In this document: piece after piece, positions 32,409 through 62,979 of the stretch
Layout: each line of letters starts with the position of its first letter
How positions within the stretch are numbered: position 1 is the first letter of the stretch
Made by a program: the position numbers and the translations under genes
Origin: a virus
Lineage: Duplodnaviria > Caudoviricetes
DNA: 64,000 nucleotides
Reading direction: 5' to 3' (one strand)
IMG/VR virus record: IMGVR_UViG_3300021960_000065
Coordinates: 2,565 to 66,564 of that record
Notes under the pieces: model-generated
Database searches by the model: none
Told to the model about the DNA's origin: nothing
What the model saw: the letters and a program-made list of their open reading frames with translations, nothing else

Positions 32409-34400
32409 CTAAACCCAACCATTCGGCAAAAGTGAATAATTGACATCCGCATTGTTGTCTTTCAACAGACTGTTCCGCATACCGCTTGGCAAAAGGGATA
32501 GGTTGGTATCATGGGTCATTTTTTCGGTTGGGCCAAAAAATTCTTCCATGTCATCCAAGAATTGAGGATGCACTCTTTCAATTTCATCACCGTAATTTTT
32601 GAGGTGGCTAAGGGCTTTTTTGTTGCCCTCTCGCGCTGATGTCATCAATTCCCCAACCTCTTCGGATGACATATTGCGGATTGCTTTCATCGGCGTGGAT
32701 TCTTCCTTCGCACCACCCTTTTCGCCACCCACTTTTGTGGTCGCTTCTGTGTTTCCACGAGTCCTTTTCCTTCGCTCGCTGCGTGCTGTGGCTTCGGTTT
32801 CAGTGGCTTTGTTGTCCTCAACAGGTGCGGATTCTTCGCTGCCTCCAAACAGTGTCGTTTGTTTTGCCGTTGGCAATTTAGTGGCTTCTTCCTCAACCTG
32901 TGGTTCAAGTTGCTTTACACGCTCAGTCTGTTCCTCAACCTGTGGTGGTTCAGGCTCTTTTTTCTTTGGCGTTCTCTTTCGCTTAGGGCGTTTGAAATTA
33001 TCAATTATGTTTGTATTTGGGCGTTCCAATTTTCGCCCCGCTTTTGCTTGAGAAGTCCTTTGTGTTCCATCGCCTTCGGTCAATTGCGGCGGTGGAGAAC
33101 GACCTTCCCCTAATTGCGGGGGATTCCGAATCGGCCCTGATCCTAACTGTCTTACCGAACCATCCTGCATTGGTATTTCATCCAAAGGTTCAATTTTTTC
33201 TTCTCCCCTCGTTGAAAGTGCGGTGTTGCTTGGTTTTGGTATAGGCACAGGCAAATGATTTTGGTTAATTGGGCGTTTGTATTCCCGCGTGGTTGTTTTT
33301 TCTCGTGTCGGTTCAACCGCTTCACGCTTTTGATTTGGTTTCAATTCACCACCGACCAATTTTTGAGTGGCATCATCAAGACTCATTGGTTCTTCTTTAG
33401 GAAATTCCAAAGAAGCAAGGTCAGGCACACGGACTTCGGGAGTGCGCTCTTGAATGTCCATCCACACTTCCATCGCTTCATCTTCGGTCATTTGGCCCGA
33501 TTCAACCTGAGCCGCAATTGCATCAACATATTGCTGTCTGCGATTTACGGCTGTGTTGTATTCGTCGTATGCACCCCAACCTTCATCGCTTCCTTTCCGA
33601 TCACCAATGTTGCCTTTTGTTCTTTCACTCAATTCTTCTTGGGGCTTTGTCTTGGGGACATCAGCCGATGAAAGTGGTCGCACCTGTTCGTTTGGCTTGT
33701 TCCGACTTTTTTCCCGTTGGTTGCCCATTCGTGCCATGATTTCAGCGGGCGATTGGCGTTCAGGGTTGAGGGTGTTAAGGGCATTATACATTCGTTGGTC
33801 GGAAGGTGCGCCCGTAATTTTTGCTCTTTGACTTGGGCTTATGCCTTCGGGTCGCATGGTTGGTGGGAGGCTTCGTGTGCGTTCTGTTTGAACAGGCGCA
33901 GGAGGTTGCTCAGTGTTGAAGTCCTCTCGCATCGGCACTTGGTTTGGTTCAAGCGGCCTTTCAGCACCGCCCTCTTGACCGAATCCACCCGGCCCTAAGT
34001 CAGCCATCATCGTTGGTGGCGAGCCACTTGCTCTTTGTGTTGCAGTGGCATTAACATTACCTGTTGCTTGTCCGAATGGGTCTTGAAATTCTCCTTGATT
34101 TCTTGGGGGCAAAGGAATGCTTTGCGCTTCTTGCTGCCCACCCATTTGTTGTGGGTTATTTGACACGCTTTGCTGAGGTGGGTTTCTGTTTGTTGTGAAT
34201 GAATTTTTCATTCGTTGCATAAAGCCGGGTCGTTGTTGGCGTGCTTGCATGGCTCGCATTTGATCTTCAAAGCCCTTCGTCAAATCCCAAGCCATTGAAA
34301 ATGCTGTGTCCTTTGTGATGACTTGACGGGGCTGACTCTTCCCCAACATTTCGGCACGAGCCTTAATGAGCAAATCGTCAAACCTATCCATGTCAATCAC
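32409..34400 (-). CDS. Low-complexity Q/P/E-rich protein carrying the AFxxAW tag
   Basis: LLIK|A and TAFSMAWDLTK|G near the N-terminus; mostly disordered composition. Confidence 0.7.
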   Translation of the reverse strand: MIDMDRFDDLLIKARAEMLGKSQPRQVITKDTAFSMAWDLTKGFEDQMRAMQARQQRPGFMQRMKNSFTTNRNPPQQSVSNNPQQMGGQQEAQSIPLPPRNQGEFQDPFGQATGNVNATATQRASGSPPTMMADLGPGGFGQEGGAERPLEPNQVPMREDFNTEQPPAPVQTERTRSLPPTMRPEGISPSQRAKITGAPSDQRMYNALNTLNPERQSPAEIMARMGNQREKSRNKPNEQVRPLSSADVPKTKPQEELSERTKGNIGDRKGSDEGWGAYDEYNTAVNRRQQYVDAIAAQVESGQMTEDEAMEVWMDIQERTPEVRVPDLASLEFPKEEPMSLDDATQKLVGGELKPNQKREAVEPTREKTTTREYKRPINQNHLPVPIPKPSNTALSTRGEEKIEPLDEIPMQDGSVRQLGSGPIRNPPQLGEGRSPPPQLTEGDGTQRTSQAKAGRKLERPNTNIIDNFKRPKRKRTPKKKEPEPPQVEEQTERVKQLEPQVEEEATKLPTAKQTTLFGGSEESAPVEDNKATETEATARSERRKRTRGNTEATTKVGGEKGGAKEESTPMKAIRNMSSEEVGELMTSAREGNKKALSHLKNYGDEIERVHPQFLDDMEEFFGPTEKMTHDTNLSLLPSGMRNSLLKDNNADVNYSLLPNGWV

Positions 34401-35230
34401 TTCCTGTATCGCAGGTAATCCATTCCTTTGTAAATGCGGTCAGCGGAGTCAAGCATACCGATGTTCCAAAATGGTCGGCTTGCTGTCACAATTGTTGGGT
34501 CGGGATTTTGAGGCACAGGGGGTTTTTCGTTTGCGGCTTCACCTGCTGCGGGCAAAGGCACACTTGGATTTGGTGCTTGACCGGGCAAAGGCACACTTGA
34601 GTTTTCAGGTGGTGCAGGTGGTGCAGGTGGTGCGCCCGCAGGTGCAGGGGCTTGTGGCTGTTGCCCTCCGCCTTGTTGTCCCATTTGTGCTAACTGACCC
34701 ATAGCCTGTTGCTGTTGCTGTTGATTTTTGCGATTTGTCCATAAATTCTTTCCCGCTTGAGCGAGTGCCGATAAACCACCTGTGGCAACCATAGTCATTG
34801 GGTTATAGCCCATGCCACCCTGTGCTTTGGGCTGACCTTGAGCCTGTTGAGCGAGCAATTGAGCGTGCTGTTGAGCGTAGGCGTTATCGCCTCCACCCTG
34901 TTGCCCTGCCGCCTGTTGCGACTGTTGTTGCCCCTGCATCAAACCACCAACCATTTGATTGGCTTGGTTTTGACTACGCAAACCCTTTCGTTGAGCCATT
35001 ACTGCGTTTTGATAGCCTTGTTTTCCTCCCGCAGCACCGGGCGACATTTGTTGGACTTGAGCATTCACCTGTCCTTGTTCAGTCGGATCCAATTTTCCAT
35101 ATTGACGACCCGCTTTGAATTTAGCATATTGGTCGCCAATCATTTGTCCAAGACCCTTTTCCAAATCCTCACGCTCACGAATCATTCTCGCTCGTGCAAT
35201 TCTGTCAATACCGATGCTTCTGTTATTCAT
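34397..35230 (-). CDS. Gln/Gly/Pro-rich protein
   Basis: DLEK|G motif; polyQ and PAP repeats. Confidence 0.7.
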   Translation of the reverse strand: MNNRSIGIDRIARARMIREREDLEKGLGQMIGDQYAKFKAGRQYGKLDPTEQGQVNAQVQQMSPGAAGGKQGYQNAVMAQRKGLRSQNQANQMVGGLMQGQQQSQQAAGQQGGGDNAYAQQHAQLLAQQAQGQPKAQGGMGYNPMTMVATGGLSALAQAGKNLWTNRKNQQQQQQAMGQLAQMGQQGGGQQPQAPAPAGAPPAPPAPPENSSVPLPGQAPNPSVPLPAAGEAANEKPPVPQNPDPTIVTASRPFWNIGMLDSADRIYKGMDYLRYRK

Positions 35231-37071: not shown

Positions 37072-38738
37072 CGCTTCCCCACCACACCCGTCACCAAAGG
37101 AATAGAAGTGTCCTCAAAGCGATATGCCGATTTGTCCTCTTCACGCTCAAGACTCTCATCACCCGGTGCGGAGGCTCGCTCAGGACTCGCTTGACCGCCA
37201 CGCTTTGCGTTTTCATCAAATACGGGAGGGGATTTCTTCAAGCCCTCAATGATTTTCACCAATTTGTCCAATTGTCGCTTCAAGTCGCTGATTTCCAAAC
37301 GAGTCAATGATTTGGACTTCATCAATGGTTCAGCGGATAGTGGGTCGTGCATCAATGACCCTGTTGCCATAGCACCTTTAGACGGCTTGAATTGACTCAT
37401 GCTCGTTCCCTTTGGGGCTGAAACACCCATTTTCGTGCCACTTGGATTCATACCGATGGTTTGGATTTTGCCCTGCAAACCCGAAGTGTCACGGTGAACG
37501 GTAATGTCACGGGGCAACGCACCCTGTTGCCTTCGCATTTTTTCGTTAGCCAATTTTCGTTGATAGGCAATTGGATCGCGAAGGCGTAGCGGAATACCTG
37601 CTGCGCGAGGATTACCCGAAAACATCCTTCGCTCACCAAACGCCTGACGCTTGGTTTGACGGTCAATGTTCTGTTCAGCGGATGCTGCCCTTCGTGCCGT
37701 TTTACCTTTGATGTCACGGCTCGCTTCTTTTTTGCCCCGCTTCATTTGACGCTTTCGTTCACGCTTCTTTTTGCTTTTGGATTTGCGCTCATCCTCATCG
37801 GATTCTTCATCCTCATCGTATTTGCGACCCTTTTTTTTTCTTCGGGCCTTGATGATGTCGGAAGTCAATGATGGTGTGTCAGCGGATGCGTTTTTCATTT
37901 GCCACGCTGTTTGAAGCGTAGGATTGAGTGAAAATGATTCTTCTTCACTCGGTTGCTCGGTTGGCGTTGGGAAAAAATGACGAACATCGGCATCATCAAA
38001 TCCATATTCGTTTTTGAAATCTTCAATGATTTGATTGCCGACCATCGGCCCTTGTTCCAAAAAGTCCTCCGCTTGTTGAAGTGTTTGCACTTCATCGGGG
38101 GATTCAAGTCCCGCTACAAACCGCCCTGATTTGAAATGTCCCGTTGGGAATTTCTTGACACCAATTAGGCTAACGAAGGGCTTTTGGTTATGTTCAGCCA
38201 ATTGTTCAGCATCCATTTGAGTGTCAAGGGCTTCCGAATCAAAAATTTCTTCGGCTACTTCATTGGGGTTTCGTTTGATAATACTCCCCCAAACGCTTTC
38301 AAAAATATCGTTGCTACGACCAAAAAGCAAACCCGGCCCTTCACGCATGACAGGACTGATTTGCGCCCCTGTGCTTGCTGACAAACCACCGGGCAAACCC
38401 ATGTCCACGCCTGTGCGTGCCTCAGCGAGCATATCCTCGTCTTTGCTTTGAGGTGTTGATGCGAGCGTATCAGCAATTTCTTCAGGCTTGATTGAAACAT
38501 GGGGCAATTCACCCTCCATTTCCTTGAGTGCCTTTTCCCTTCGCTTCATCGGACTTAACTGATCACGAAACGACTGTGATTCTCCACCTTCACGGCTATG
38601 ATGGGACAACCCATCAGCATCGTTATTTGGGTTCACATCATAGTCACCCATCATTTCGCGCCCATTGAACCCGCCTGTGAATTCTTGAACCCGTATGGAT
38701 TCTTCATTCACATTTCTTCGGGGGTTGGCTACGGGCAT
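37068..38738 (-). CDS. Multi-segment protein with highly basic central block
   Basis: IFESVWGSIIK|R, DIIK|A, PLMK|S separate acidic and basic segments. Confidence 0.7.
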   Translation of the reverse strand: MPVANPRRNVNEESIRVQEFTGGFNGREMMGDYDVNPNNDADGLSHHSREGGESQSFRDQLSPMKRREKALKEMEGELPHVSIKPEEIADTLASTPQSKDEDMLAEARTGVDMGLPGGLSASTGAQISPVMREGPGLLFGRSNDIFESVWGSIIKRNPNEVAEEIFDSEALDTQMDAEQLAEHNQKPFVSLIGVKKFPTGHFKSGRFVAGLESPDEVQTLQQAEDFLEQGPMVGNQIIEDFKNEYGFDDADVRHFFPTPTEQPSEEESFSLNPTLQTAWQMKNASADTPSLTSDIIKARRKKKGRKYDEDEESDEDERKSKSKKKRERKRQMKRGKKEASRDIKGKTARRAASAEQNIDRQTKRQAFGERRMFSGNPRAAGIPLRLRDPIAYQRKLANEKMRRQQGALPRDITVHRDTSGLQGKIQTIGMNPSGTKMGVSAPKGTSMSQFKPSKGAMATGSLMHDPLSAEPLMKSKSLTRLEISDLKRQLDKLVKIIEGLKKSPPVFDENAKRGGQASPERASAPGDESLEREEDKSAYRFEDTSIPLVTGVVGKR

Positions 38739-38744
38739 GAAAAA

Positions 38745-39539
38745 TCACCTCCAATGTGGGTGGACTGTGTTGCGTGTTCCGCACTTAGGACAGCGTTTTT
38801 GTTCCCACTCTTGAGGGGTTTGAATGTAGCCACAACCTCGGCATTGGAGGTCGTTATCAGTCCAACCTTCATCCTCGCCTTCTTCAAGGTCATCCCAAGA
38901 CTTTTTGTTAATGGTTTTACTACAAAACGGGCAATCTCCCCTGCCTTCTGTCAATTTGTCATAATCAAGAGGCTCAATTTCAAAGTCACGCTCTTGGTAG
39001 GATTCGTCTGTGTTTGGCCCATAGCGATCAAAATCCGTATAGGTTTCCATCATTACATCGCCAATGTCTTGACCGCAAACGGGACAATCGCCACCCGAAG
39101 TGTGCAAATTTTCCATCCCTTCAATGTCCAAGTCTTTGATGCGTTCCATGTAGCCACATTCACCGCAAGCAAAATTGAGTCGCCCATTTTCTTCTTGCAT
39201 AATCAAACCTTCTCCACGACACTCAGGGCATTGGTGCGAGGATATTGCTCTTGGTTCATTCTTGACAATTCCCCAACCCACAACAAACGCCTTTGCCATC
39301 CCTTGATGGCTCGCGCAATACTGCCCCTCGCTATCAACACGAGCCATGCACATTGAATTAGCACAGGTTGGATAGGTCAAGAAGCGTTTCTTTTCAAAGG
39401 ATTTCTTCAAATCCTTGTCTTTGTAGCATGGGCATTTTGGGTCACTCTTTGAGCAATTCATTACGCCTTTTTTCATGCACGCACATGGGCTTGATTTTGT
39501 AGCCCCACAACAACATGAATCACGCTTCAACAATTCCAC
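38745..39539 (-). CDS. Cys-rich multi-zinc-ribbon protein with internal tag (probable GTG start)
   Basis: Many CxxC pairs; AFVVGWGIVK|N. Confidence 0.65.
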   Translation of the reverse strand: MELLKRDSCCCGATKSSPCACMKKGVMNCSKSDPKCPCYKDKDLKKSFEKKRFLTYPTCANSMCMARVDSEGQYCASHQGMAKAFVVGWGIVKNEPRAISSHQCPECRGEGLIMQEENGRLNFACGECGYMERIKDLDIEGMENLHTSGGDCPVCGQDIGDVMMETYTDFDRYGPNTDESYQERDFEIEPLDYDKLTEGRGDCPFCSKTINKKSWDDLEEGEDEGWTDNDLQCRGCGYIQTPQEWEQKRCPKCGTRNTVHPHWR

Positions 39540-40135
39540 CTCTTCAATGCAGCACCCTTTGGTGTCAATTTGCCACCTTTGCTCGTTGGCCCTTTTACCC
39601 CGCCCATCCGAGCGCAAAACGACTTTCGCCTCTTGGCTTTCTTTGAACCGGGTTTGAGTGTTGATGGTTTTTCAGTGACGGGGGGTTTGAGGTTTGCACC
39701 CTCTTCACGCTTGAATTTTGCACGCCCTTTTGCATTCAACCCACCTTCACGACTGTGGCGATTTGGGTTGTAGCCATGAAACGGTTTGTCGGACTTTTTG
39801 CTCAACAACGCTTTCGCCAATGTGTCACAGGTTTCGCAATTACACGCTGACTTTTTTGTGTCACTTGGCACACAATTTGGGACTTTTTTGCCCCGCTTGG
39901 TTTTCATGCCCACTTGTTCGTAGCCATCCCAACACGGATCTTCTTTGACAACCCCTCTTGGGCCTGTCCAATATCCACTTGCGATTCTTGCGAATTCGCA
40001 TTGATTACAATAGCCGGGTATTACCACCTTTCCCCGATAGCGAGGCCGTGTAGGATCTATGGGGTTTCCACAATTGTCGCATGGTTCATCCATTTTGACA
40101 ATTTGCCACACCTTATTGAAAGTGGATGACATCAT
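39527..40135 (-). CDS. Tagged protein with CWxGY module and basic RRKSFCARM domain
   Basis: TFNKVWQIVK|M; PCWDGYEQVGMK..GKKVPNCVP; GGLNAKGR...RRKSFCARM...ALKRWNC, which I recall from T4-like marine phage proteins. Confidence 0.7.
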   Translation of the reverse strand: MMSSTFNKVWQIVKMDEPCDNCGNPIDPTRPRYRGKVVIPGYCNQCEFARIASGYWTGPRGVVKEDPCWDGYEQVGMKTKRGKKVPNCVPSDTKKSACNCETCDTLAKALLSKKSDKPFHGYNPNRHSREGGLNAKGRAKFKREEGANLKPPVTEKPSTLKPGSKKAKRRKSFCARMGGVKGPTSKGGKLTPKGAALKRWNC

Positions 40136-50782: not shown

Positions 50783-50843
50783 GTGTTTTGCACGCCTCTT
50801 CAATTGAAAATCCTTTTTGTTAAGGTTGTCAACCATCACAGGG

Positions 50844-50851
50844 TTAATATG
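50844..50851 (+). promoter_or_regulatory. TATA-like element TTAATATG upstream of the thermosome gene
   Basis: About 25-30 nt before ATG 50874 in a divergent intergenic region. Confidence 0.45.
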
Positions 50852-50873
50852 CTTGGTTTGTGTGGCGGTGAAC

Positions 50874-52445: not shown

Positions 52446-53666
52446 AACATCCTTTGGGTGCATTGGTTCAGGCGAAAAGTGCCGTTGCTCAAGCAATTGC
52501 GAAAGGTGTTCACGCGCCATAGGTTTGTCACCAAGCGTGTAGGTATCAATTGACCCTGTTCTGTGCATAGGATCGTAGCGTTGAGTCCATTCCATCAATT
52601 GTGCTTGTTTTTCAGGTGGGACATTCAAATCCCATTTTTCATAAGCATCCATCATGCCCGGTGTGTTCACGAATTGGTTTGTTTCTTGGACATTCATACC
52701 TTGTCGTGTGCTGTCACGATTGACAAACGCCCCAAGGTTCTCCATCAGTCTTTTGTGTGCTGCATCGGCAGCATCACTCCTTGCGTCTTTCAATGACCCC
52801 AAAGTGCCATAATGCTCAATTAGGGCAGGAAGAACCCGTTCACTATACAGCCCTTGACCTTGATAGCCGTCATCAATGTTCGCATGAACAATCGGAATGG
52901 GTTGGTTGGTGTAAGGTTCGGTGAATAGTGAATAGGCCGTTGTGTGAGGTTCATTTTTTTGATATGGTCTTAACTCCCCATCAGCATCCAATCGTGACTC
53001 AATGAATCTGTTAAATTGGGTTGGCAATTGTGGGCGTGGGAGGTCAATAGCGAAACGCCCCACTTCAAATGGCTTAGGGAGGCTTGTGTCAAACAACGCC
53101 CATTGGTCTTTGTTTGGGAGTTTTGCACTCAAAGGACTCCCAACGAGCGAATAACCTGACTCATCGTATTTTTCAATGCCGTCATCCTCATCCTGTGATT
53201 CCATGTGTTGTTGATTCATTTGTCGTATTTGTTCCATCATTTGAGCATAATTCTCGTCAAACATTGGGTTTTCATAAGTCAAAACACCGGGACTACGCTC
53301 GTTTTCCACAGCGTCGGGCCAAATGTCCTGTGGCGGTATGGGTTCGCTTGACACAAATGATGCCTGTTCGCCCACTTGGTTAGGATCGTAGCCTAACATA
53401 GCGAGCATCATAGGACTGTGATCAGCACCGGGTGTCATTCGTGGGTCGCCCTCATCACGCCAAAACGGAATGACGGACACATGGGGGCTTTGCCTGTTGG
53501 TGAATGAAATCCACCTGCGTGCAATTTCAGGGTCAAGGGAGGCATAAACCTCGCCAAAATTGCTACGAATACCTTCACGCAGGATAGGGTCAAGGTTCTC
53601 CGAGGGTGTTGCGTGGTAATACATGGGCATTTTCACAATAGCCCAAGCGGAGTCAAATGCACTCAT
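52431..53666 (-). CDS. Tagged ADP-ribosyltransferase-like (Tpt1/KptA-type) plus GNAT-like two-domain protein
   Basis: AFDSAWAIVK|MP; YYHAT..NL..IL.EGI, VYAS, IPP; linker GIEK|Y; YQGQGLY. Confidence 0.65.
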   Translation of the reverse strand: MSAFDSAWAIVKMPMYYHATPSENLDPILREGIRSNFGEVYASLDPEIARRWISFTNRQSPHVSVIPFWRDEGDPRMTPGADHSPMMLAMLGYDPNQVGEQASFVSSEPIPPQDIWPDAVENERSPGVLTYENPMFDENYAQMMEQIRQMNQQHMESQDEDDGIEKYDESGYSLVGSPLSAKLPNKDQWALFDTSLPKPFEVGRFAIDLPRPQLPTQFNRFIESRLDADGELRPYQKNEPHTTAYSLFTEPYTNQPIPIVHANIDDGYQGQGLYSERVLPALIEHYGTLGSLKDARSDAADAAHKRLMENLGAFVNRDSTRQGMNVQETNQFVNTPGMMDAYEKWDLNVPPEKQAQLMEWTQRYDPMHRTGSIDTYTLGDKPMAREHLSQLLEQRHFSPEPMHPKDVLSLL

Positions 53667-54220
53667 GCTTCATCCCTCCACAAATCATCACGAATGGGCC
53701 AAGAAGGTTCATCCATCCGATTCCACACCGACTGTGGATTTTCACCCAATGCGTTAGTCCAAAGCCCCCTTGACGCATCACTTAGTGAATTGGATGGTGT
53801 GAGGGGTCGTTTCATGTATTCGTTGAGAATCGCCGCCGCCATGTCATACATCGCTGTTCCATATCCCCTTCTTCTAACCTGATGTGGGACAAATGAATGA
53901 TAGGGCCAAAAAGACTGACCTTGTTTTCGTTGTTCACCCGTTGTGAAGATTGACATTGGGAGGTCATTGAGTGCCAATCTCCCCAATACATATTCTTCGG
54001 GATTAGGGTGATGGATTTCAACAAGCATTCGGGTTGCATCATCAATCCTATCATCAAAATTTTCACTATTTGGTGTTGCCGTCATTCGGAATGAATCATT
54101 CGTTATGGGATCTTCAAAGTCAGCATGAAATTCATCACCTTCTCGCCTAAGCGAATTGGGAACAATGGGCATTTTCACGATAGCCCATGCTGAATCAAAC
54201 GCCTCGCAAAATGTCATCAT
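53663..54220 (-). CDS. Tagged GNAT acetyltransferase
   Basis: AFDSAWAIVK|MP; VRRRGYGTAMY. Confidence 0.75.
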   Translation of the reverse strand: MMTFCEAFDSAWAIVKMPIVPNSLRREGDEFHADFEDPITNDSFRMTATPNSENFDDRIDDATRMLVEIHHPNPEEYVLGRLALNDLPMSIFTTGEQRKQGQSFWPYHSFVPHQVRRRGYGTAMYDMAAAILNEYMKRPLTPSNSLSDASRGLWTNALGENPQSVWNRMDEPSWPIRDDLWRDEA

Positions 54221-55004
54221 ACCACCTCCTTAATTGAGAAGCCTTTTCACTAAGTCTGTTCGTGTAGGTGAAAACGGCCTGAATTTCTTCTTTGTTCGCA
54301 TTGTCCCAATCAATGCTATCCTCTAAACGGTCTATTTCAGCCCGCAATTCGTCTATTTTTCCTAACCTTTCCATTTCGCTTTTGGCATTCATTCTCGCAC
54401 GATTGCCCATAATTTGTGCTTGTTCGTAGGGGTCTTTGACTCCTTTAATAGCCGTAGCGATTTCTTTGATTTTTTGCATACGGGGTGTTTGAGGATTTTC
54501 CACATACCCTTCTTCATTGACACTTGGGTGACTATACAAAGCCCTCAATTTAGCCATGAAATTGGGGTGCTTTGTGTCAGCCTCGTGTTCAGCGGTATAT
54601 GCGGGGTATTCGTGTCCTTGTGGCTGTTGTCCGTAAAGACGCTGTAATCGTGGTTCAGCCCAATGCACTGCTTGGTGAGTGGCTTCATGGAGTCCGACAG
54701 CACCCGTGTGATACATCAAATCCTTCTCCTGTTCTTCTGTTAGTGAATCAACACCGTCAGGAAATTGCCTTCCAAAGTGAACAGCAGGGTTTAGCACCGC
54801 ATAACTTGATGGGCGGTCAAAAGGCGGTGGCCCTCCAATCGTCGGTTGTCGCAATATAGCACCTCCACTTGCGTTTTGATTGTCCTCATCAAATGTGAAG
54901 TCCATTGGGCCAAAACCACCCTCGGCATAAGGAAAACCCCTAATGTATTCTGTGTGTGAAATGCTCGCCTTCAACAGCGACCAAACGGTTTCAAACGGGT
55001 TCAT
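54195..55004 (-). CDS. Tagged HExxH zincin-like protein
   Basis: PFETVWSLLK|A; LHEATH...HEYPAYTAE. Confidence 0.65.
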   Translation of the reverse strand: MNPFETVWSLLKASISHTEYIRGFPYAEGGFGPMDFTFDEDNQNASGGAILRQPTIGGPPPFDRPSSYAVLNPAVHFGRQFPDGVDSLTEEQEKDLMYHTGAVGLHEATHQAVHWAEPRLQRLYGQQPQGHEYPAYTAEHEADTKHPNFMAKLRALYSHPSVNEEGYVENPQTPRMQKIKEIATAIKGVKDPYEQAQIMGNRARMNAKSEMERLGKIDELRAEIDRLEDSIDWDNANKEEIQAVFTYTNRLSEKASQLRRWYDDILRGV

Positions 55005-55764
55005 TTTCTTCCACCTCGTCAGTAGCGTAAGTCGCCAAGTAATTGGCGCGAAGCCAATTGTTCAATTCTTGAGGCGTGGTTCTCACCTGCCCCATACCGT
55101 GTAAAATTTTGTGCTGTCGCAACAATTCCCTTTGTTGCTCATCGGTCATGGTTTGTAAATGGCCGAAATCCCACATCATCCGATCTATCCAATCGTAGCG
55201 TTGCATAGAAGCATCACGCCAATTTTTCAAGCGAGTAGCCAATTCATTCAATTCTTCCTCCCCCAACCTTCGCATTGTGTGTGGGGGGACATCTCCTTTA
55301 GTGCGCCATTGAATCGTGTGTTCGGGATAGGCATAGTGTGTCAATTCACCTGAGTCGTATTCATCTCGTTGCCATTTGGGTTCTTTAATCCACTCAGGGG
55401 CATCGGGATGGTTTTCATCAATTTCAAAAATATCTGAACCGTAGGCACGAGCCTGATTGAAAGCACCGAGCATTCCCGCAGGTGCTTGAAGGGTTTCTCT
55501 CTCGGTTGGCCCTGCGGCGTATTTCCAAGTGTCGCCCAACATCATCCGTTCCCAATCCTCTTCGCTGTAATCACGCAAAAATCGTTCTTTGATTTGTTCA
55601 ATGGGCCAATCATAGTCCTCGTTCCTGCGACTGTCATAGACATATTCCTGTAAATCCGCCGCTTCATCGCCAACATTCAAGCCCTCACGCTCAACATCGT
55701 CACCCCAATAAGTGCCGTGATAAAGGGCTTTCATAATAACCCATGCGGAGTCAAAGGCGTTCAT
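54991..55764 (-). CDS. Tagged ADP-ribosyltransferase-like protein (probable start MNAFDSAW)
   Basis: AFDSAWVIMK|A; LYHGT..EGL, ARAYG, IFEID, VPP. Confidence 0.6.
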   Translation of the reverse strand: MNAFDSAWVIMKALYHGTYWGDDVEREGLNVGDEAADLQEYVYDSRRNEDYDWPIEQIKERFLRDYSEEDWERMMLGDTWKYAAGPTERETLQAPAGMLGAFNQARAYGSDIFEIDENHPDAPEWIKEPKWQRDEYDSGELTHYAYPEHTIQWRTKGDVPPHTMRRLGEEELNELATRLKNWRDASMQRYDWIDRMMWDFGHLQTMTDEQQRELLRQHKILHGMGQVRTTPQELNNWLRANYLATYATDEVEENEPV

Positions 55765-56696
55765 CACGCAACCCTCCAATGTAGGTTGTCTTGAAACTCG
55801 CTGAACGCCCCCGTTGGGTCGTTTGCTTCTTCCCACCGTCCGTCAAATTGACGCAATTCTGTCATGGGAATGTCCTGTGCGCTCAAACCTTTCGGCAAAT
55901 CGGGGATAAGACGACCCATGCCGGGAACCAATTCACGCCCAAAGAAAAACGAGGGAGGCACAGCATCACGCCTTCGCCCAAAGGATGCAGGAATACCATA
56001 CCCACCTGTCGCTTTGCGGTGTTCTTCATTCATGTTGTAATCAAAGGATTCGGGGTATTCCTCCGCTAAATGGGGCAATTGAGCATATCTGTTGGAGGTT
56101 AAGCCCATCAAACGCCTCATGTCCTCTCCGTATATCATGTCCTCATCATAATTGAATTGGGGTTTTCGCAATTTGCGATCATAACCACTTGACACCATGT
56201 AAGCGGGAATGTAGGGTGCGCCCATCGTCCTTAACGCTTCAACACGGTGGTTGCCCTCTCCAATGCCCCATCCCGATGGGGTGAAGTGCAATTGGGGGAT
56301 GGCTACATTACCAACAGCATCCAACCCTGCCGCCGCTTTGTCGTAGCGTTTTCTGCCTTCTTCTATTACATCAAGTCCCTTTTCTTCATCAGAACGGCGT
56401 TTCCACCATTCCGAATCACGACCTAACATTCCATGTTCCATTATGCTCTCCATCAATTCTTCAATGCGCTGTTTGCCGTAATCTCCCCCGTAAGTGCTTG
56501 AAGGCAAAACCTCCTGCCAATGCCTCGTGGGGGGCAACATTTCAGTCGGCACAAAATCCAACGGGGATGAAGAACCCGCATACCTGCGTTTGTTCTTACC
56601 TCGTCCACCTAACACTTCATAGAGAGGGGCATAGATTTCCTCCCACATCCCCTCATCAATTTTGATGATTGCCCATGCGGTGTCAAAAGCGGTCAT
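55764..56696 (-). CDS. Tagged ParB/Srx-like protein
   Basis: AFDTAWAIIK|I; IEELMESIMEHG, IGEGNHRVEAL...IPA. Confidence 0.7.
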   Translation of the reverse strand: MTAFDTAWAIIKIDEGMWEEIYAPLYEVLGGRGKNKRRYAGSSSPLDFVPTEMLPPTRHWQEVLPSSTYGGDYGKQRIEELMESIMEHGMLGRDSEWWKRRSDEEKGLDVIEEGRKRYDKAAAGLDAVGNVAIPQLHFTPSGWGIGEGNHRVEALRTMGAPYIPAYMVSSGYDRKLRKPQFNYDEDMIYGEDMRRLMGLTSNRYAQLPHLAEEYPESFDYNMNEEHRKATGGYGIPASFGRRRDAVPPSFFFGRELVPGMGRLIPDLPKGLSAQDIPMTELRQFDGRWEEANDPTGAFSEFQDNLHWRVA

Positions 56697-57412
56697 GCAA
56701 TCACCTCTCCACCAATTTCGCTCATCAGTGTTTCCATATTTGTGTTGGGAAACGCTGCCCCATACGGTGTAATAACGGATAATTCGCCCACGACACGAGA
56801 ATCATCAGGAATGAGCATACGCACACCATGTGACGGATGGTCGTTTTTATCCTGTTGTTGTGTCAAAACGAAGCCACCAAATTTGTTGGGTATTCGCTTA
56901 CCGTCTTTGTCGTAATCGTAGGGCCAATAGGAAGCCAACGGTGCGGGCTGTCCTTCTTGATTAAGCACCACAGGATTGCCACGCTTATCGTATTCAATAT
57001 CGTAATCCATCAAATCCTGTGGATTTGCTTGATTAAAGAGCATTTGATCAATAATCTCACGGCTTGTCATACCCTGCACGAACCCGTGTTTGTTGCGACG
57101 ACCCTCATTCCAAGCCCTCGCTTGATCGTTTCTTTTGATGTTAAATTCAGCAAAGGCATCCATTGGGATGGTGGATGAAGTGGCGAGAGTGGTGTAGTCA
57201 CGCATTTTGCCGTCAGGCTTTCGCAATTTCGCTTGAAGGGACATCATGGGGCGTTCTTTCCAATAATTACGCAGGTTTCGGAATGAACGGATAGGTTGCT
57301 CGCCCTCAAGCAAGGTGTGTTGCTTTTCACCCAACCACCTCTCCCCTTCAGGAGTCATAGTGGGTGCTTCGTAGCCTTTTACCACCAACCACCCGGTGTC
57401 AAACGGGGTCAT
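56693..57412 (-). CDS. Tagged hypothetical protein
   Basis: PFDTGWLVVK|G. Confidence 0.65.
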   Translation of the reverse strand: MTPFDTGWLVVKGYEAPTMTPEGERWLGEKQHTLLEGEQPIRSFRNLRNYWKERPMMSLQAKLRKPDGKMRDYTTLATSSTIPMDAFAEFNIKRNDQARAWNEGRRNKHGFVQGMTSREIIDQMLFNQANPQDLMDYDIEYDKRGNPVVLNQEGQPAPLASYWPYDYDKDGKRIPNKFGGFVLTQQQDKNDHPSHGVRMLIPDDSRVVGELSVITPYGAAFPNTNMETLMSEIGGEVIA

Positions 57413-57518
57413 TTTTCTTTACCCCCGTCACCATGCACTTCTTGGTCTTAGCCTCACGCTCATCCAAACGCTTGCTGTGATAGTCAAACCACTCATCAAG
57501 CAATTTACAGCGCGTCAT
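57399..57518 (-). CDS. Small hypothetical ORF (39 aa)
   Basis: ATGA overlap with the lyase stop; MTRCKLLDEWFDYH...; fills the gap. Confidence 0.4.
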   Translation of the reverse strand: MTRCKLLDEWFDYHSKRLDEREAKTKKCMVTGVKKNDPV

Positions 57519-58402: not shown

Positions 58403-58443
58403 GTGCGCTGTGAGGGCGTGACGGCTGAAAAAGTTAGCGGGGG

Positions 58444-58467
58444 TCAGGCGGTGTCAAAGGCGGTCAA
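58444..58467 (-). pseudogene. Orphan tag remnant TTG ACC GCC TTT GAC ACC GCC TGA
   Basis: Nearly identical to the ATGACCGCCTTTGACACCGC leaders at 59587 and 60297, but with TTG start and TGA in place of TGG. Confidence 0.75.
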
Positions 58468-59069
58468 TATATCCCCTCCCTTAGCACAAACGGTGGATGG
58501 CGTTTCATACCTAAAGACATATAGCGTTTGAACCAATCGGAGTCTTTCAATTGATTTTGTAGGCGTTGATCGTAATTTGCGACCATTGAAAGGTGTCGTC
58601 GCCTCATCATATCGGGATCTTCATCGCCTGTGTAAAGTGAATCAACATCGGGATATTTTTCGTTCCCTGTGAAAATCACCCTAAGCATTTCGGGCGGTAT
58701 CGCTTCGGTCACAGAAAAATCGTGATATGTTGGATTGAAATTAAATCCTTCTAAACCTTCTGCTTCATCTGCGATTTCAATTACAACAGGGCTTGAATCG
58801 GGTGTCTGTGAGCCAATGTCCATGTGTGGTTCAAGGTTTCCTATGGCGTAGGCTAAGGCTCTCAATGGCTCTTGAGCCATGAATGCTCGGCTTTCGCCTT
58901 CATAGGGTGTTTCATCCTCTTCCATGTATTCAAAGTCATCCGCGTAATTGCCCTCATCGTGAGCGTGTGGGTTAAGGCCGTGTTGTAGGATTGAAGAGAG
59001 GTTTTTTGACGAAGTGCCGTGATAATACGGCATTTTCAACAAAGCCCAAGCGGTATCAAAGGCGGTCAT
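58464..59069 (-). CDS. Tagged ADP-ribosyltransferase-like protein (Tpt1/KptA-type)
   Basis: AFDTAWALLK|MP; YYHGTSSKNLSSILQHGL, ALAYA, PVVIEI, AIPPE. Confidence 0.75.
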   Translation of the reverse strand: MTAFDTAWALLKMPYYHGTSSKNLSSILQHGLNPHAHDEGNYADDFEYMEEDETPYEGESRAFMAQEPLRALAYAIGNLEPHMDIGSQTPDSSPVVIEIADEAEGLEGFNFNPTYHDFSVTEAIPPEMLRVIFTGNEKYPDVDSLYTGDEDPDMMRRRHLSMVANYDQRLQNQLKDSDWFKRYMSLGMKRHPPFVLREGIY

Positions 59070-59587
59070 GGCACGAAATCCCCCTTATCCTCTTCATCGG
59101 GCCATTCCATGCCAATAGCACGAGCAAAATCGGCTACACTTGGCGATTGTTGATGAGTCCTACGCATAAATTGGCCTTTTCCGCTTTCCATTGGGACATA
59201 ACGACCTCCTGCGTTGAAGATTTCTTCTATCATGTCCTCAAGCCATTTTTCATCCGAAGGCTTAACGCTTCTATGCCTTGACAAAGGCGAACCCACAATT
59301 GCGTTCACTAAAGAGGCTCTTTCCAATTCTCCGAAAACTTCCTCAATGCCAACATCTGTCCCATCTCCCCGTGAAAACCCCCCTCTTGCGATCCACTCTC
59401 CATCTCGCCCATCCCGCATGGCTTCTGCAAAGTCCCCTGTGCGATAATCGGGAAGATATTCACGATGAGGCGCAATTTTTGACCCAACAACCGCTAATTC
59501 AGCATTGGGTGAAAACCAAGAAGGGCGTTTTTGAGGCAGGTTGAAATCCACTTTCAACAAATCCCAAGCGGTGTCAAAGGCGGTCAT
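59066..59587 (-). CDS. Tagged hypothetical protein
   Basis: AFDTAWDLLK|V. Confidence 0.65.
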   Translation of the reverse strand: MTAFDTAWDLLKVDFNLPQKRPSWFSPNAELAVVGSKIAPHREYLPDYRTGDFAEAMRDGRDGEWIARGGFSRGDGTDVGIEEVFGELERASLVNAIVGSPLSRHRSVKPSDEKWLEDMIEEIFNAGGRYVPMESGKGQFMRRTHQQSPSVADFARAIGMEWPDEEDKGDFVP

Positions 59588-60297
59588 GGACTATCCCTCA
59601 CTCTTTCAGCCATCCATTCCTTGATTTTGCGCTGACTGTTGCCATACATCGGCAACACATCCTCCGGGTCAATCGCTCTTGGTGTTATCAATTCGTGCAT
59701 CATTTCGGGAACATCGGCAGGTATTTCAAAGGGTATTTCGGTCATATCAGGTGCGTCAATAGCGAACATTTGGGTATAAGGATCGCGTGTGGGAATGAAT
59801 TGCTCTCCCCCAATAACCCCCCTGTCCCATTGTGCCAAAGGCATATTGAATGCTTCGTATTTTCTTTGGATGTTTTCCTTCAATTCATCCATAAATTGTT
59901 GGTCGTATGGTGTGTCAAAATCAACATTGGCTTCTTCTAAGGCTTGATAAAAATTGCCCATAGCATCCGCTGCAAGCATATTCCCTGCAATCGTTTCATC
60001 ACGGTAAGGTTGGGTGTCAATGATGTAATGCTCTTTGCCGCCCTGAACCCGATTGCGAAATTGATTTAGCAATTGACTCACTGACAATTTGCTATTGGAC
60101 TCAGCACCGATTGGGATTGAAAAAACACCGTGTGGCCTGTTTAGGATTTCGTTGTGCGGAAGGGTGCTTATTGCGGCGTGGTTGTGATTGCCACCCATGC
60201 TTGGATCTATCGGTTCACCAATTGGCACATGACCCCCGTGATATGCGAAACGAGGGACATTTTTCACAATATCCCATGCGGTGTCAAAGGCGGTCAT
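59584..60297 (-). CDS. Tagged protein, possibly ART-like
   Basis: AFDTAWDIVK|N; AYHGG, GVFS, YIID, ELITPRAIDPE. Confidence 0.5.
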   Translation of the reverse strand: MTAFDTAWDIVKNVPRFAYHGGHVPIGEPIDPSMGGNHNHAAISTLPHNEILNRPHGVFSIPIGAESNSKLSVSQLLNQFRNRVQGGKEHYIIDTQPYRDETIAGNMLAADAMGNFYQALEEANVDFDTPYDQQFMDELKENIQRKYEAFNMPLAQWDRGVIGGEQFIPTRDPYTQMFAIDAPDMTEIPFEIPADVPEMMHELITPRAIDPEDVLPMYGNSQRKIKEWMAERVRDSP

Positions 60298-60836
60298 AGG
60301 TCATCCCTCACAAGCCAAGAAGAAGGCCCATATTTCTTCGTTTTGCTTCTCCACAAATTCTTAGCGTCTTGTGTTTGAAAGTCGGAAGGTTCAAGGGTTT
60401 CACCACGCCGATCCAAAATAGAAGCCACCATATCATAAATTGCGGTCATATATCCCCTTCTTCGGTAATCCGAGTCTGTTCCAACCATTGTCGGCTCAAA
60501 AAAGGATTCATTGGTTGGTTTCCGAAAAGCGGCATCTGCCCGATTGTATTTAAGCGGGCGGTTTTCTTCTAAAATCAAGGCGTTTATCTGTTCATTGTCT
60601 TGTCGCCCCCGATCCACAGGTTGAACAATCGCTTCCATAGGCAAACGCTCTCCCGTTTTTGGATCGTCAAAAAGTGCTGAATAATGCGTAAAATCAAATA
60701 AATTTTCAAGAGGAATAGCATTATGTTTAGCCCATTGTTTGTAGCGTTGTTGCCATTCATCCCCTTCACTTTCAATAAGAGAATGGGGAACAATGGGCAT
60801 TTTCACCAAATCCCAAGCGGATTCAAATGCGGTCAT
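60294..60836 (-). CDS. Tagged GNAT acetyltransferase
   Basis: AFESAWDLVK|MP; YRRRGYMTAIY; paralog of 53663..54220. Confidence 0.75.
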   Translation of the reverse strand: MTAFESAWDLVKMPIVPHSLIESEGDEWQQRYKQWAKHNAIPLENLFDFTHYSALFDDPKTGERLPMEAIVQPVDRGRQDNEQINALILEENRPLKYNRADAAFRKPTNESFFEPTMVGTDSDYRRRGYMTAIYDMVASILDRRGETLEPSDFQTQDAKNLWRSKTKKYGPSSWLVRDDL

Positions 60837-61348
60837 GGATTCGGCCTCCCCACCCTGTCGTCACCTGCGTGCTTCTCACGCAACCTCCGCATGAAACCCA
60901 AACCCTGTTCACTCATCATATGAGGTGGCGGTTGATACATTCGCCTGTTTTGATTTTCAGCCAAACGCAAAATCAATTGAATCAAGGCTTCTTGATACCC
61001 GCGCCCCTCATAGCCGGGTTCGGTTTTGATTGAATAGGGATAAATGCCTCTTGGGTCGTCAATGTTGTCACGGTCAATGGAGAGTGAGGTGGGGTGGATA
61101 TAATGTTCAGCCCTCCACATACGATGGCCCATATCATTGGGTTCGTTGTCCGAAATGTGAGCCACACCCAAACCATCAGGACTTAAACGAGCAACAGCAG
61201 GTAAGCGTTCATTTGTTTCGGGGTCTATGAAATCGCCTTCAAATTGATGAAAGGGGAATTGCCCCTGCATGACTGTCCCGACATCACGAATTGAATCCAT
61301 GTCAAGAGGTGCTTTCAACAAAGCCCACGCTTGCCCAAACGCCCCCAT
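60833..61348 (-). CDS. Tagged GNAT acetyltransferase (probable start MGAFGQAW)
   Basis: AFGQAWALLK|A; YEGRGYQEAL. Confidence 0.7.
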   Translation of the reverse strand: MGAFGQAWALLKAPLDMDSIRDVGTVMQGQFPFHQFEGDFIDPETNERLPAVARLSPDGLGVAHISDNEPNDMGHRMWRAEHYIHPTSLSIDRDNIDDPRGIYPYSIKTEPGYEGRGYQEALIQLILRLAENQNRRMYQPPPHMMSEQGLGFMRRLREKHAGDDRVGRPNP

Positions 61349-61387
61349 GCTGTGCGTCAAGGCACATCATGTCAAAAATGTAGCGGA

Positions 61388-62212: not shown

Positions 62213-62222
62213 GTGTTATCCC

Positions 62223-62236
62223 TGTCAGTCCTAACA
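62223..62236. promoter_or_regulatory. Palindromic operator-like site TGTCAG-TC-CTAACA
   Basis: Between a T-rich TATA-like element and ATG 62212; flanked by CC/GG. Confidence 0.45.
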
Positions 62237-62253
62237 GGATGATCCATAAAAGG

Positions 62254-62979
62254 TTAGCGGGATTTTACAACATCCCATGCCGAAGTGAATGCGTCATCGC
62301 TTTTCCATTCGTCACTAAAACCTCGTGGGAAACCGTATTCCTTTCCTTCCCTTTCAGGGGGCGGGACAAGTGATGGTGGTCGCCCCCTTCTTTGAAGTTG
62401 CCTATTCAAAGCCCCTTCCATTTGTGCTGTGATATTGGTGCGTTGTTCGGTGTCGCCTCGGAACGACCTGCGAGCCGCCTCTTCCACCAATTGTCCGTGA
62501 AGTGGATCGTATTCGCCCGTTCCCATGTTTTGTTGAAATTCACTAATGCGAGCCGCCAATTCTTCATCGCTCATGTCAGCCAATGGATTGGGAGGGCGGG
62601 GTGGCATTGGCATCTGTGGTGAAGGGAATGGCTCAAATTCCCCCTCATCCTCTTCCTCAACGATGGGCTTGCCATCGCTATCCAAAGCCCCGTCAATCAA
62701 CATATCCGACACGCACTGCACGCAATACGCACCGCCATTAAATTCGGGGTGATTCTCAATGGGATGTGGACTGTCAATTTCTCCACGATAGCCGGGAGTG
62801 TCATACCCGCCCTGCTCTCCCATGCACGATTCGCACACATCCTGACCGCACTGTTCACAGCCGTATTGTTTGCCATCGGGTATTGGCTCATTACAATACG
62901 AGCATTCAGGGTCGTCGTCATATTTGAGGATTTTACCTTTCATGGCACTATCCCAAGCGATGCGAAATGCCGTAGGCAT
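62254..62979 (-). CDS. Zinc-finger protein with the tag at both ends
   Basis: AFRIAWDSAMK|G ... CSYC, CEQC, CESC, CVQC ... AFTSAWDVVK|SR. Confidence 0.7.
   Translation of the reverse strand: MPTAFRIAWDSAMKGKILKYDDDPECSYCNEPIPDGKQYGCEQCGQDVCESCMGEQGGYDTPGYRGEIDSPHPIENHPEFNGGAYCVQCVSDMLIDGALDSDGKPIVEEEDEGEFEPFPSPQMPMPPRPPNPLADMSDEELAARISEFQQNMGTGEYDPLHGQLVEEAARRSFRGDTEQRTNITAQMEGALNRQLQRRGRPPSLVPPPEREGKEYGFPRGFSDEWKSDDAFTSAWDVVKSR

Follow-up and report, generated by a model that had tools for sequence, protein, structure and literature searches.

A short tag on unrelated proteins of marine archaeal tailed viruses as a possible head-loading signal

In bacteriophage T4, an N-terminal peptide of about 10 residues is described as the sole feature common to diverse internal proteins; this capsid targeting sequence (CTS) sends proteins to the prohead scaffolding core and is removed by the prohead protease, after which the proteins are injected, and T4 Alt is an ADP-ribosyltransferase (PMC3012670, PMC9958956). 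We found no published description of such a signal for archaeal viruses, and the tag presented here would, as far as we found, be the first for an archaeal virus. Magroviruses are abundant in the surface ocean and uncultured, and most of their accessory genes are unannotated. In the window (the whole 64-kb stretch of viral DNA analysed here), the original prediction had pointed to a peptide shared by 20 sites in otherwise unrelated proteins, which it compared with the T4 signal.

Tag sites, codon use and helix geometry

The tag has 12 residues with the consensus M-[TS]-A-F-D-x-A-W-x-h-h-K (h, hydrophobic). All 20 named sites were found at the named genes, and 20 of 20 lie on the minus strand:

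62938..62970, minus: weak N-terminal variant with one extra residue, 241-aa CxxC-rich gene 62254-62979
62263..62292, minus: C-terminal tag, same CxxC-rich gene 62254-62979
61313..61342, minus: N-terminal tag, residues 3-12, 171-aa gene 60833-61348
60801..60830, minus: N-terminal tag, 180-aa gene 60294-60836, paralogue of 53663-54220, weak GNAT match below the Pfam cutoff
60262..60291, minus: N-terminal tag, 237-aa gene 59584-60297
59552..59581, minus: N-terminal tag, 173-aa gene 59066-59587
59034..59063, minus: N-terminal tag, 201-aa ART-fold (Tpt1/KptA/DarT-like) gene 58464-59069
57377..57406, minus: N-terminal tag in the P-F-D-T-G-W form, 239-aa gene 56693-57412
56661..56690, minus: N-terminal tag, 310-aa gene 55764-56696
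55729..55758, minus: N-terminal tag, 257-aa gene 54991-55764, ART-like paralogue
54969..54998, minus: N-terminal tag, V replacing A before W, 269-aa gene 54195-55004 with HExxH motif
54173..54202, minus: tag at residues 7-16, 185-aa gene 53663-54220
53631..53660, minus: N-terminal tag, 411-aa gene 52431-53666, ART-like paralogue
49281..49313, minus: divergent internal variant, residues 136-146, 504-aa gene 48204-49718
48157..48189, minus: divergent N-terminal variant, one residue longer and with L for F, 722-aa gene 46039-48207
44972..45001, minus: C-terminal tag, 357-aa candidate Dam-like (D12-class, DPPY) methyltransferase 44966-46039
40094..40123, minus: N-terminal tag variant, 202-aa gene 39527-40135, DUF6321 cargo domain
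39261..39290, minus: internal tag, residues 110-119, after a Cys-rich domain, ORF 38745-39617
38274..38306, minus: divergent internal variant, 556-aa gene 37068-38738
34275..34304, minus: tag at residues 33-42, 663-aa gene 32409-34400

The 10-residue form x-F-x-x-x-W-x-h-h-K is matched by 16 of these sites, that is by 12 of the 14 predicted N-terminal tags, both C-terminal copies and two of the four internal ones (34275-34304 and 39261-39290). The other four are looser variants that are one residue longer: two are N-terminal, in the genes starting at 62979 and 48207, and two are the divergent internal sites 49281-49313 and 38274-38306, the last of which aligns with a canonical internal tag of the homologue in the related genome G010. 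The strict pattern [AP]F[DE]x[AG]Wx-h-h-K had 10 matches in a six-frame translation of the window and none on the plus strand. A position matrix, trained partly on the same window sites that it then scored, gave 15 matches that reach 10 bits, every one of them minus-strand and within an ORF; 20 mononucleotide shuffles gave 3 in all, and the reversed sequence gave none.

As had been stated, three genes of the region lack the tag:

61388-62212: GP88-like gene
57515-58402, minus: HMG-CoA-lyase-like gene, within the tag cluster
50817-52445, plus: thermosome subunit, convergent with the tag operon

The HMG-CoA-lyase-like gene is likewise untagged in four related records (G003, G004/L140, the Poseidoniales contig L143 and G010).

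The tag is nearly always found at the extreme N-terminus. Among 271 tag matches in related IMG/VR contigs, F is residue 4 in 202, with the nearest start codon two residues ahead of the residue before F, and the start codon lies within six residues in 250; a profile was also searched against 1.84 billion proteins, and in 144 of the 150 matches listed the tag lies in the first ~6 residues. A G-rich, Shine-Dalgarno-like block is located 8-12 nt 5' of the ATG of tagged genes.

Over 181 unique N-terminal sites F, W and K are invariant while synonymous codons differ (F: TTT 105, TTC 76; K: AAA 115, AAG 64; Ala-3: GCC 75, GCA 45, GCT 24, GCG 17), and 68 of the 240 codon pairs that encode a shared residue within the window are unlike. 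Conservation confined to the DNA level had been named beforehand as an outcome contrary to the prediction, and the opposite was seen; the synonymous variation therefore indicates selection at the protein level. This bears on the idea that the conserved gene start serves above all as a recombination junction for cassette swaps between viruses, the peptide itself being near-idle. Tandem genes with common 5' ends would fit such a junction, as would ORFs that chain several tagged modules in frame and the Met that directly follows the tag in 14 of 93 families, as if tags had been prefixed to older start codons; a similar shuffling role has been discussed for T-even internal-protein loci. Since synonymous sites vary freely but F, W and K never change, and since C-terminal and internal tags exist, we regard this as extremely improbable as the main explanation, although a recombination role and a peptide role could coexist.

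The predicted amphipathic helix agrees with the hydrophobic moment of the tag (0.53, compared with 0.26 in shuffles, 1% of which are as high). F, W and the second hydrophobic residue, at i, i+4 and i+7, would occupy one helix face flanked by small Ala, and N-terminal, C-terminal and internal copies all occur, so that the helix is usable at either end of its cargo.

A Sec signal has a hydrophobic core of ~7-15 residues and a Tat signal a twin-arginine motif; the tag consensus has no twin Arg and a longest hydrophobic run of 2-3 residues, and so fits neither kind of signal peptide.

Cargo proteins

Once the tag is removed, 215 distinct tagged proteins from related IMG/VR contigs fall into 93 BLAST families, and only 6 Pfam families were matched among 95 tagged family representatives. 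The statement that the attached domains are unrelated held in an all-against-all BLAST of 31 region proteins, where similarity outside the tag was limited to two small paralogue groups. The domains that had been proposed fared unequally. The ART-like assignment was supported: the largest tagged family is an ART-fold enzyme whose profile (24 members) matched PDB structures of RNA 2'-phosphotransferase (E 1.2e-4) and, over profile positions 15-133, of DarT1 (E 4.9e-4), the similarity taking in the H-G-T strand with the invariant H17 and T19. These profile matches support an ART fold of the Tpt1/KptA/DarT branch for 58464-59069 and its paralogues, with catalysis only predicted.

For the product of 44966-46039, which has a DPPY motif at residue 229, no Pfam match was obtained at E 0.05 and the match to the DpnII methyltransferase in the PDB was weak (E 0.07), while 27 of 30 feature matches in the ESM Atlas were PF02086 clusters (score 0.95); the gene is thus a lead, a candidate for a Dam-like D12-class N6-adenine DNA methyltransferase. 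The remaining labels have a weak basis, namely one sub-threshold Pfam match for GNAT, a bare motif for HExxH (54195-55004) and CxxC motifs with sub-threshold matches for the zinc fingers, and a ParB-like domain was not found for any window protein.

One and the same domain can occur with and without the tag, as the untagged 49721-50884 is matched by a tagged protein of another contig (L010). For 39527-40135, 362 phage records match the DUF6321 domain, and these matches are confined to residues 52/64-202; the domain is untagged in marine phages, and an untagged pelagiphage homologue is among the matches.

The ART domain begins 2-3 residues past the tag, and the residue after the invariant Lys is Ala in 23 and Met in 14 of 93 families (background 6% and 4%). 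Together with the extreme N-terminal placement, this preference and the abutting first ART strand would suit a control peptide, i.e., a degron or inhibitory pro-peptide through which one protease (the prohead protease or the host proteasome/Lon) switches toxic enzymes jointly and no packaging takes place. However, C-terminal and internal copies occur, the amphipathic F/W/L face with its fixed Ala spacing has the look of a binding surface and not of a degron, and a tagged portal tail (see below) would be left unaccounted for; we consider a control function quite improbable. Very improbable in our view is a membrane-targeting helix like those of MinD, FtsA and SepF. Such helices are short, amphipathic and terminal and might sit at either the N- or C-terminus, as the tag does, but those known to us are cationic, whereas the tag has a single Lys against one conserved Asp and, in many cases, a further acidic residue (net charge 0 to -1), and among its cargo are ART folds of the nucleic-acid type and a candidate DNA methyltransferase.

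Distribution and head-module genes

The tag bearers are thermosome-encoding magroviruses, viruses of Poseidoniales, and the loose pattern has 7-16 matches in each near-complete genome or viral contig. Tags had been expected in accessory and late genes and to be absent from replication and host genes, and this was borne out with one chance-like host exception. Replication arms carry none (0 of 29 genes in G003, 0 of 35 in G010). A scan of 185,579 species, one genome each, with the strict DNA pattern matched four stretches. Two belong to a permease-like gene of Glaciecola and are a match by chance; the other two share a 106-kb contig in a single-cell genome of Poseidoniales, and this contig encodes a capsid protein 82% identical to that of the window. 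In this cell, 16 of 17 loose-pattern matches are on the viral contig, and the single match elsewhere is chance-like. The tag is virus-specific and virtually absent from host DNA. Taken together, the data support a portable signal that acts at the protein level, is attached to unrelated cargo and is limited to accessory and virion-side genes.

The window encodes the following head proteins, of which the prohead protease-scaffold fusion and the HK97-type capsid protein are a point in favour of head loading:

27938..29731, minus: portal protein, whose last ~95 residues (about 27941-28225) form a linker-attached tail
20889..22217, minus: S78 prohead protease, a fusion whose C-terminal half is scaffold-like; a candidate both for the processing enzyme and for the receptor
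19711..20883, minus: major capsid protein, HK97-type by Pfam, candidate receptor

Homologues of the portal C-terminal tail comprise 31 distinct ORFs, 23 of them being the ends of full-length portals and 8 separate short ORFs. Of the eight separate tails, six start with a canonical tag (25-33 bits); the tag of a seventh is degenerate, and the eighth is untagged. The crown of a portal is its C-terminal part. Portal stem, wing and crown are described as located inside the capsid (PMC9958956). Tagged genes were also found between the portal and protease genes (2-3 in each of L132, L116 and L114), in the head-tail connector region (one in G006) and after a 1523-aa fibre-like gene (four in G004); in the window, the 663-aa tagged gene 32409-34400 is directly upstream of the large terminase. 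As far as gene sequences can tell, the tag on detached portal tails and its occurrence between portal and protease genes link it to the head interior. Alternatively, the split portal could have arisen from a tag-bearing cassette inserted into the portal linker. A 1169-aa protein is encoded between the portal and protease genes, the position that a 1313-aa 'zeta toxin' protein has in HVTV-1.

On these grounds the chances seem to us evenly balanced that the tag is a portable head-loading signal resembling the T4 capsid targeting sequence. It might act as a portable docking helix that marks fast-changing accessory proteins for incorporation into the virus head: the helix would bind one common prohead receptor (the scaffold domain, the capsid protein or the portal), the tagged proteins would thereby be enclosed during assembly and they would exit with the DNA at infection. 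That the tag is the general virion-loading address of the commonest ocean-surface archaeal tailed viruses, its bearers being enclosed in the prohead and delivered with the DNA, is a tentative reading to which we give somewhat less than an even chance. Removal of the tag after Lys by the S78 prohead protease is doubtful.

Several observations count against head loading. The main tag cluster is an operon of its own at the promoter-proximal end of its arm, beside a divergent control region bordering the replication arm, and this placement would also suit early host-takeover genes. The tag abuts the ART domain without a linker, unlike typical encapsulin or microcompartment peptides, and with a median pI of 4.95 the tagged proteins are acidic, in contrast to the internal proteins of T4, which associate with DNA. 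G010, although 95% complete, has only about three N-terminal tags, its contig ending where the tag cluster would be; one detached portal tail of eight is untagged; and the tag is absent from the cultured viruses whose capsid proteins are most closely related (HVTV-1, 31% identity).

Some of the evidence would also suit a tag that docks proteins to a common hub outside the virion, for example the viral thermosome (client recruitment) or a conserved host machine, and so concentrates or folds takeover enzymes in the cell. The helix geometry fits any hydrophobic groove, the cluster position is compatible with early genes, a thermosome gene lies within or adjoining the tagged region in the window, G003 and G010, and the tag is near-invariant across viruses with structural proteins of 40-63% identity, as might be expected for a very conserved receptor. 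On the other hand, among the structural proteins conservation is highest in the capsid protein (60-63% identity in the most distant records with a tag), neither the tagged detached portal tails (6 of 8) nor the tagged genes embedded in head and tail modules are explained by such a hub, no motif-bearing host protein was found in the 185,579-species scan or in the Poseidoniales single-cell genome, and one host target for at least 15 unrelated enzymes per genome is hard to justify. We therefore consider docking outside the virion unlikely, though not negligible.

Significance and comparison with known systems

If head loading is true, the more than 90 tagged families, nearly all without a function by annotation, would constitute the injected first-strike proteome of uncultured viruses, and the 12-residue code could be movable onto foreign cargo, of which the tagged portal tail and the tagged domains that occur untagged elsewhere would be natural counterparts. 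A sequence-defined address would pick out, by sequence alone, proteins that are probably carried into the cell, making the tagged proteins candidate host-takeover and anti-defence factors. With it, the principle of the T4 internal proteins would reach viruses with an HK97-type protease in another domain of life. The tag offers a simple, testable handle on a system without culture, and in the split portal tail nature has provided an experiment that could point the way to a receptor.

The closest parallel is the T-even CTS of IPI-III and Alt, likewise a short N-terminal peptide common to unrelated proteins of one virus, here to 93 families. An ART-fold cargo, here the largest family, and an encoded prohead protease are further likenesses. 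Unlike T4, the host is archaeal, the protease is of the S78, HK97 type and not gp21, the repertoire is far larger (at least 93 families), and the motif is sharply defined. Encapsulin and microcompartment peptides are also short terminal peptides (N or C) that dock unrelated enzymes inside a protein shell, and encapsulin shells have the HK97 fold, as does the window capsid protein by its Pfam type. Those peptides, however, are usually on flexible linkers and have other sequences, whereas here the tag abuts the domain and the shell would be a DNA-filled virus head. In MuF-toxin fusions, polyvalent proteins and the Dar proteins of phage P1, all of them packaged, effector domains reach the head joined to one of its components. 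The 1169-aa protein and the unsplit portal, whose tail is attached by a linker, resemble this kind of loading, whereas the tag would replace covalent fusion by a 12-residue address.

Identity of the virus and tag sites in the window

The window, which comprises 64 kb of the 66.5-kb virus record, encodes on its minus strand the morphogenesis module of a tailed virus, and about 30 accessory genes lie upstream of this module in the same orientation. The landmark genes are:

19711-20883, minus strand, major capsid protein, HK97-type
20889-22217, minus strand, S78 prohead protease fused to a scaffold-like half
27938-29731, minus strand, portal
30962-32398, minus strand, large terminase
50817-52445, plus strand, thermosome gene

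IMG/VR contains 256 relatives of the capsid protein. Among cultured viruses, the haloarchaeal viruses HVTV-1 and HCTV-1/5 come closest (31-32% identity). A capsid protein 82% identical to that of the window is encoded on a contig of 106 kb that belongs to a single-cell genome with the label 'uncultured Candidatus Poseidoniales archaeon'. Because of this capsid match and the thermosome gene, we infer that the window virus fits a group-A-type magrovirus as PMC5434244 describes it. The 106-kb contig is itself magrovirus-like and carries at least 15 tags (L143 and L145; contig C2 of the single-cell genome G015), and, lying in a Poseidoniales single-cell genome, it links this virus family directly to a host. 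A search for tRNA genes found none, and scans of positions 50000-64000 for bacterial promoters (17 versus 16.2 expected) and bacterial terminators (17 versus 15.4 expected) remained at chance level. The replication arm of the complete relative G003 is headed by a 3528-aa ORF with a signal-peptide-like N-terminus (L134; G003 27284-37870, plus strand), which is absent from the window.

The tag is a 12-residue peptide of the form M-[TS]-A-F-D-x-A-W-x-h-h-K, located mostly at the extreme N-terminus of accessory proteins. All 20 sites listed in the original prediction were found on the minus strand inside ORFs, 16 in the 10-residue form x-F-x-x-x-W-x-h-h-K and four as variants that are one residue longer. 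The strict pattern gave 10 matches in the window, none of them on the plus strand, and a position matrix gave 15 matches at >=10 bits; 20 shuffles together produced three such matches, and the reversed sequence produced none. The tagged proteins had been described as unrelated; indeed, an all-against-all BLAST of 31 regional proteins detected similarity beyond the tag only in two small paralogue groups, an ADP-ribosyltransferase (ART)-like trio (58464-59069, 52431-53666 and 54991-55764) and a second trio (60294-60836, 53663-54220 and 60833-61348). Moreover, annotation and the matrix scan bear out the statement that the thermosome, HMG-CoA-lyase-like and GP88-like genes lack the tag. The observation itself is confirmed and has been greatly extended.

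Spread of the tag and selection on the peptide

A degenerate DNA pattern of the tag identified 52 loci in IMG/VR, and seven of their contigs were also among the best 80 of the 256 capsid-protein relatives. Across these loci and the window, a loose peptide pattern gave 271 matches, of which 202 have the phenylalanine as residue 4 from the nearest start codon and 250 lie at most six residues from a start codon; a few are chance matches in unrelated phages, for example at internal sites of very long proteins (L002 and L027). After removal of the tag, 215 distinct N-tagged proteins formed 93 single-linkage BLAST clusters, the largest with 25, 20 and 14 members and 56 consisting of a single protein. 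Four near-complete genomes contain 7-14 loose matches each, on a single strand and grouped in one or two regions, and the reversed pattern gave no match in these genomes. A profile built from the first 36 residues matched 161 of 1.84 billion representative proteins at E <= 0.001, a number that is a lower bound since this threshold recovers only 65 of the 215 known tagged proteins; at least one of the 161, the repeat protein P0099, is a false positive. The tag lies within the first ~6 residues in 144 of the best 150 of these 161 matches.

The invariance of F, W and K in 181 unique N-terminal sites is built in, because the search pattern required these residues; Ala-3 (89%), Asp-5 (80%, with Glu in 14%) and Ala-7 (90%) are near-fixed though free to vary. 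The original prediction had named conservation at the DNA level, with no synonymous variation, as an outcome that would refute it. This objection is removed, since synonymous codons vary both at the 181 sites (GCC/GCA/GCT/GCG, 75/45/24/17; TTT/TTC, 105/76; GAC/GAT, 92/52; AAA/AAG, 115/64) and within the window, where the codons differ in 68 of 240 same-residue pairs. Judged by these codons, selection acts on the protein level. A G-rich block 8-12 nt 5' of the ATG supports the assigned start codons.

The tag was also expected to be absent from replication and host genes, and, with a single chance-like exception in host DNA, this holds in the genomes compared. None of the 29 genes in the replication arm of G003 (100% complete) and none of the 35 in that of the near-complete relative G010 (95% complete) carries it. 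Three fragments (65-73% complete) gave no tag match; judging from the position of their capsid gene, they mainly cover the tail side and the replication genes. In one genome per species of 185,579 prokaryote species, the strict pattern occurs in four stretches only. Two of them reflect one chance match, at the beginning of a permease-like gene in Glaciecola; the other two lie on the Poseidoniales viral contig. In the Poseidoniales single-cell genome, the 106-kb viral contig holds 16 of the 17 loose matches, leaving one in the other ~1.1 Mb. A scan of HVTV-1 with the tag matrix found no tag. We regard it as established that the tag is a portable, virus-specific, protein-level address.

In G010 (L148-L153), whose capsid protein is 87% identical, only ~3 proteins are tagged at the N-terminus and a large tag cluster is missing; the contig stops next to the thermosome gene, which is where the cluster sits in the window. 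In the profile matches P0135, P0041, P0068 and P0160, two to six tagged modules follow one another in frame, without a stop codon in between. Each tag in these chains is preceded by G-E-P-M, which is also present at the L039 and L052 sites and whose codons (GGN GAR CCN ATG) would hold a Shine-Dalgarno-like GGNGA; the chained modules may be fusions, polyproteins or internal-initiation sites. Another N-terminal peptide that recurs, of the D-L-I-L-K-A-R type, is carried by a small number of proteins close to the terminase and within the connector region:

Window 34364-34400, N-terminus of 32409-34400
L133 (G003), genes 637-1749 and 0-659
L137 (G003 89111-89674)

This peptide is rare, with 7 N-terminal instances in 1.66 Mb. 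In the related genome G006, a gene with the main tag occupies the connector position that elsewhere holds a D-L-I-L-K-A-R-type gene.

Cargo proteins and candidate maturation sites

Searches with 95 family representatives matched only six families in Pfam, with one member each, and 16 in PHROGs, ten of these from a single window protein; PHROGs gave no match for 19 of the 20 window proteins tested. The largest cargo family has the ART fold, with PDB profile matches to RNA 2'-phosphotransferase (E 1.2e-4) and DarT1 (E 4.9e-4). Its domain starts 2-3 residues past the tag, which is present in all 17 database homologues of 58464-59069. The gene 44966-46039, which has a C-terminal tag, is from its sequence a candidate Dam-like methyltransferase. 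The same domain can occur with and without the tag, as a tagged GP88-type protein (L010) is homologous to the untagged 49721-50884. The DUF6321 part of 39527-40135 has matches in 362 marine phage records, confined to residues 52/64-202. Among them is an untagged pelagiphage protein of 72 aa whose gene lies between those for scaffold and capsid, which hints that this domain might be head-associated in other marine phages. This homologue is gp33 of the T7-like pelagiphage Pelagibacter phage HTVC304P (L155:1483-1701). Tagged proteins are acidic (median pI 4.95) and have a median length of 181 aa. The product of 37068-38738, with an internal tag variant, contains a long Lys/Arg/Glu-rich stretch that is conserved in G003 and G010, and may be a nucleic-acid-binding internal protein. 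An HMG-CoA-lyase-like gene lies within or beside the tag cluster in five records (window 57515-58402; L134, L140, L143 and, in G010, L152 90338-91162) and is never tagged, which fits an enzyme acting in the infected cell and not in the virion.

Two invariant peptides resemble the end of the tag and are possible maturation sites, namely D-L-L-K-A in the N-arm of the capsid protein (about residues 35-40; window 20767-20781) and L-L-K-M-D where the protease domain ends and meets the scaffold (about 21699-21713). We rejected them as evidence for h-h-K as a protease site, because such tripeptides are common; the N-terminal F-I-L-K of the window protease is presumably part of the protease fold. At the position after the lysine of the tag, Ala and Met are enriched (23 and 14 of 93 families, respectively), which agrees equally well with a cleavage site, with former start codons or with a helix cap. 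The C-terminus of the protease-scaffold protein (20892-20990) contains a strongly conserved helix, G-L-D-G/A-W-R-A-x-E-E-L, which is a candidate for the capsid-binding end of the scaffold; an A/G-W core is common to this helix and the tag, although the register differs.

Tagged genes in virion modules and comparison with known systems

The portal of the window, G003 and G010 has at its end a conserved tail of ~85-95 residues, joined on by a low-complexity linker rich in Pro, Gly, Ala and Gln; in other lineages the portal ORF stops within this linker and a short ORF of its own encodes the tail. The portal tail is located at:

Window 27941-28225
L132:2941-3213
L116:2754-3251
L114:2886-3236

Tail homology was found in 31 distinct ORFs, 23 of them full-length portals and eight separate ORFs. 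A canonical tag (25-33 bits) opens six of the eight separate ORFs, a seventh has a degenerate version and the last is untagged; among the 23 full-length portals, none of the eight listed with scores has an N-terminal tag. The tag appears on the portal tail where the covalent link to the portal is lost. The crown is the C-terminal part of the portal. Since stem, wing and crown are located inside the capsid (passages of PMC9958956), the C-terminal tail would be a capsid-internal element. The simplest reading is that the tag would restore the place of the detached tail in the head. The loci L132, L116 and L114 all have one more tagged gene between portal core and tail, and L132 and L114 have an additional one downstream, between two head genes. 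In G006, a tagged 109-aa gene lies in the head-tail connector region, and in the related genome G004 four small tagged genes follow a 1523-aa fibre-like gene. These module-embedded genes are positioned for expression with the virion genes.

Because of the split portal tail and the tagged genes in virion modules, head loading is the best-supported function of the tag, with about an even chance of being correct. The placement of the main cluster counts against it: in G003 the cluster is an operon of its own, promoter-proximal in its arm and adjoining the divergent region that borders the replication arm, and in the window the cluster and the thermosome gene point towards each other, a placement that would also suit early genes. 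The ART domain abutting the tag, the acidic cargo and the few tags of G010 were likewise counted against head loading. The proposal of a capsid-targeting signal for virion-delivered effectors is, as a whole, partly supported; cleavage after the lysine and injection of the cargo are hypotheses.

No description of the tag was found in literature searches on magroviruses, archaeal viruses, capsid targeting, prohead proteases and DUF6321. A term look-up in PMC5434244, PMC11706807 and PMC10160649, whose supplementary tables may list these genes, returned neither 'N-terminal' nor a relevant 'motif'. The closest known system is the capsid targeting sequence of T-even phages, a peptide of ~10 residues that is removed by gp21, and Alt is a packaged ADP-ribosyltransferase of these phages (both from passages of PMC9958956). 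The two would be alike in logic and even in the kind of cargo, whereas host domain, protease family, motif and scale differ. Targeting peptides of encapsulins and microcompartments have the docking principle in common with the tag. Effector fusions to head proteins represent the covalent alternative, of which the unsplit portal tail may be an example.
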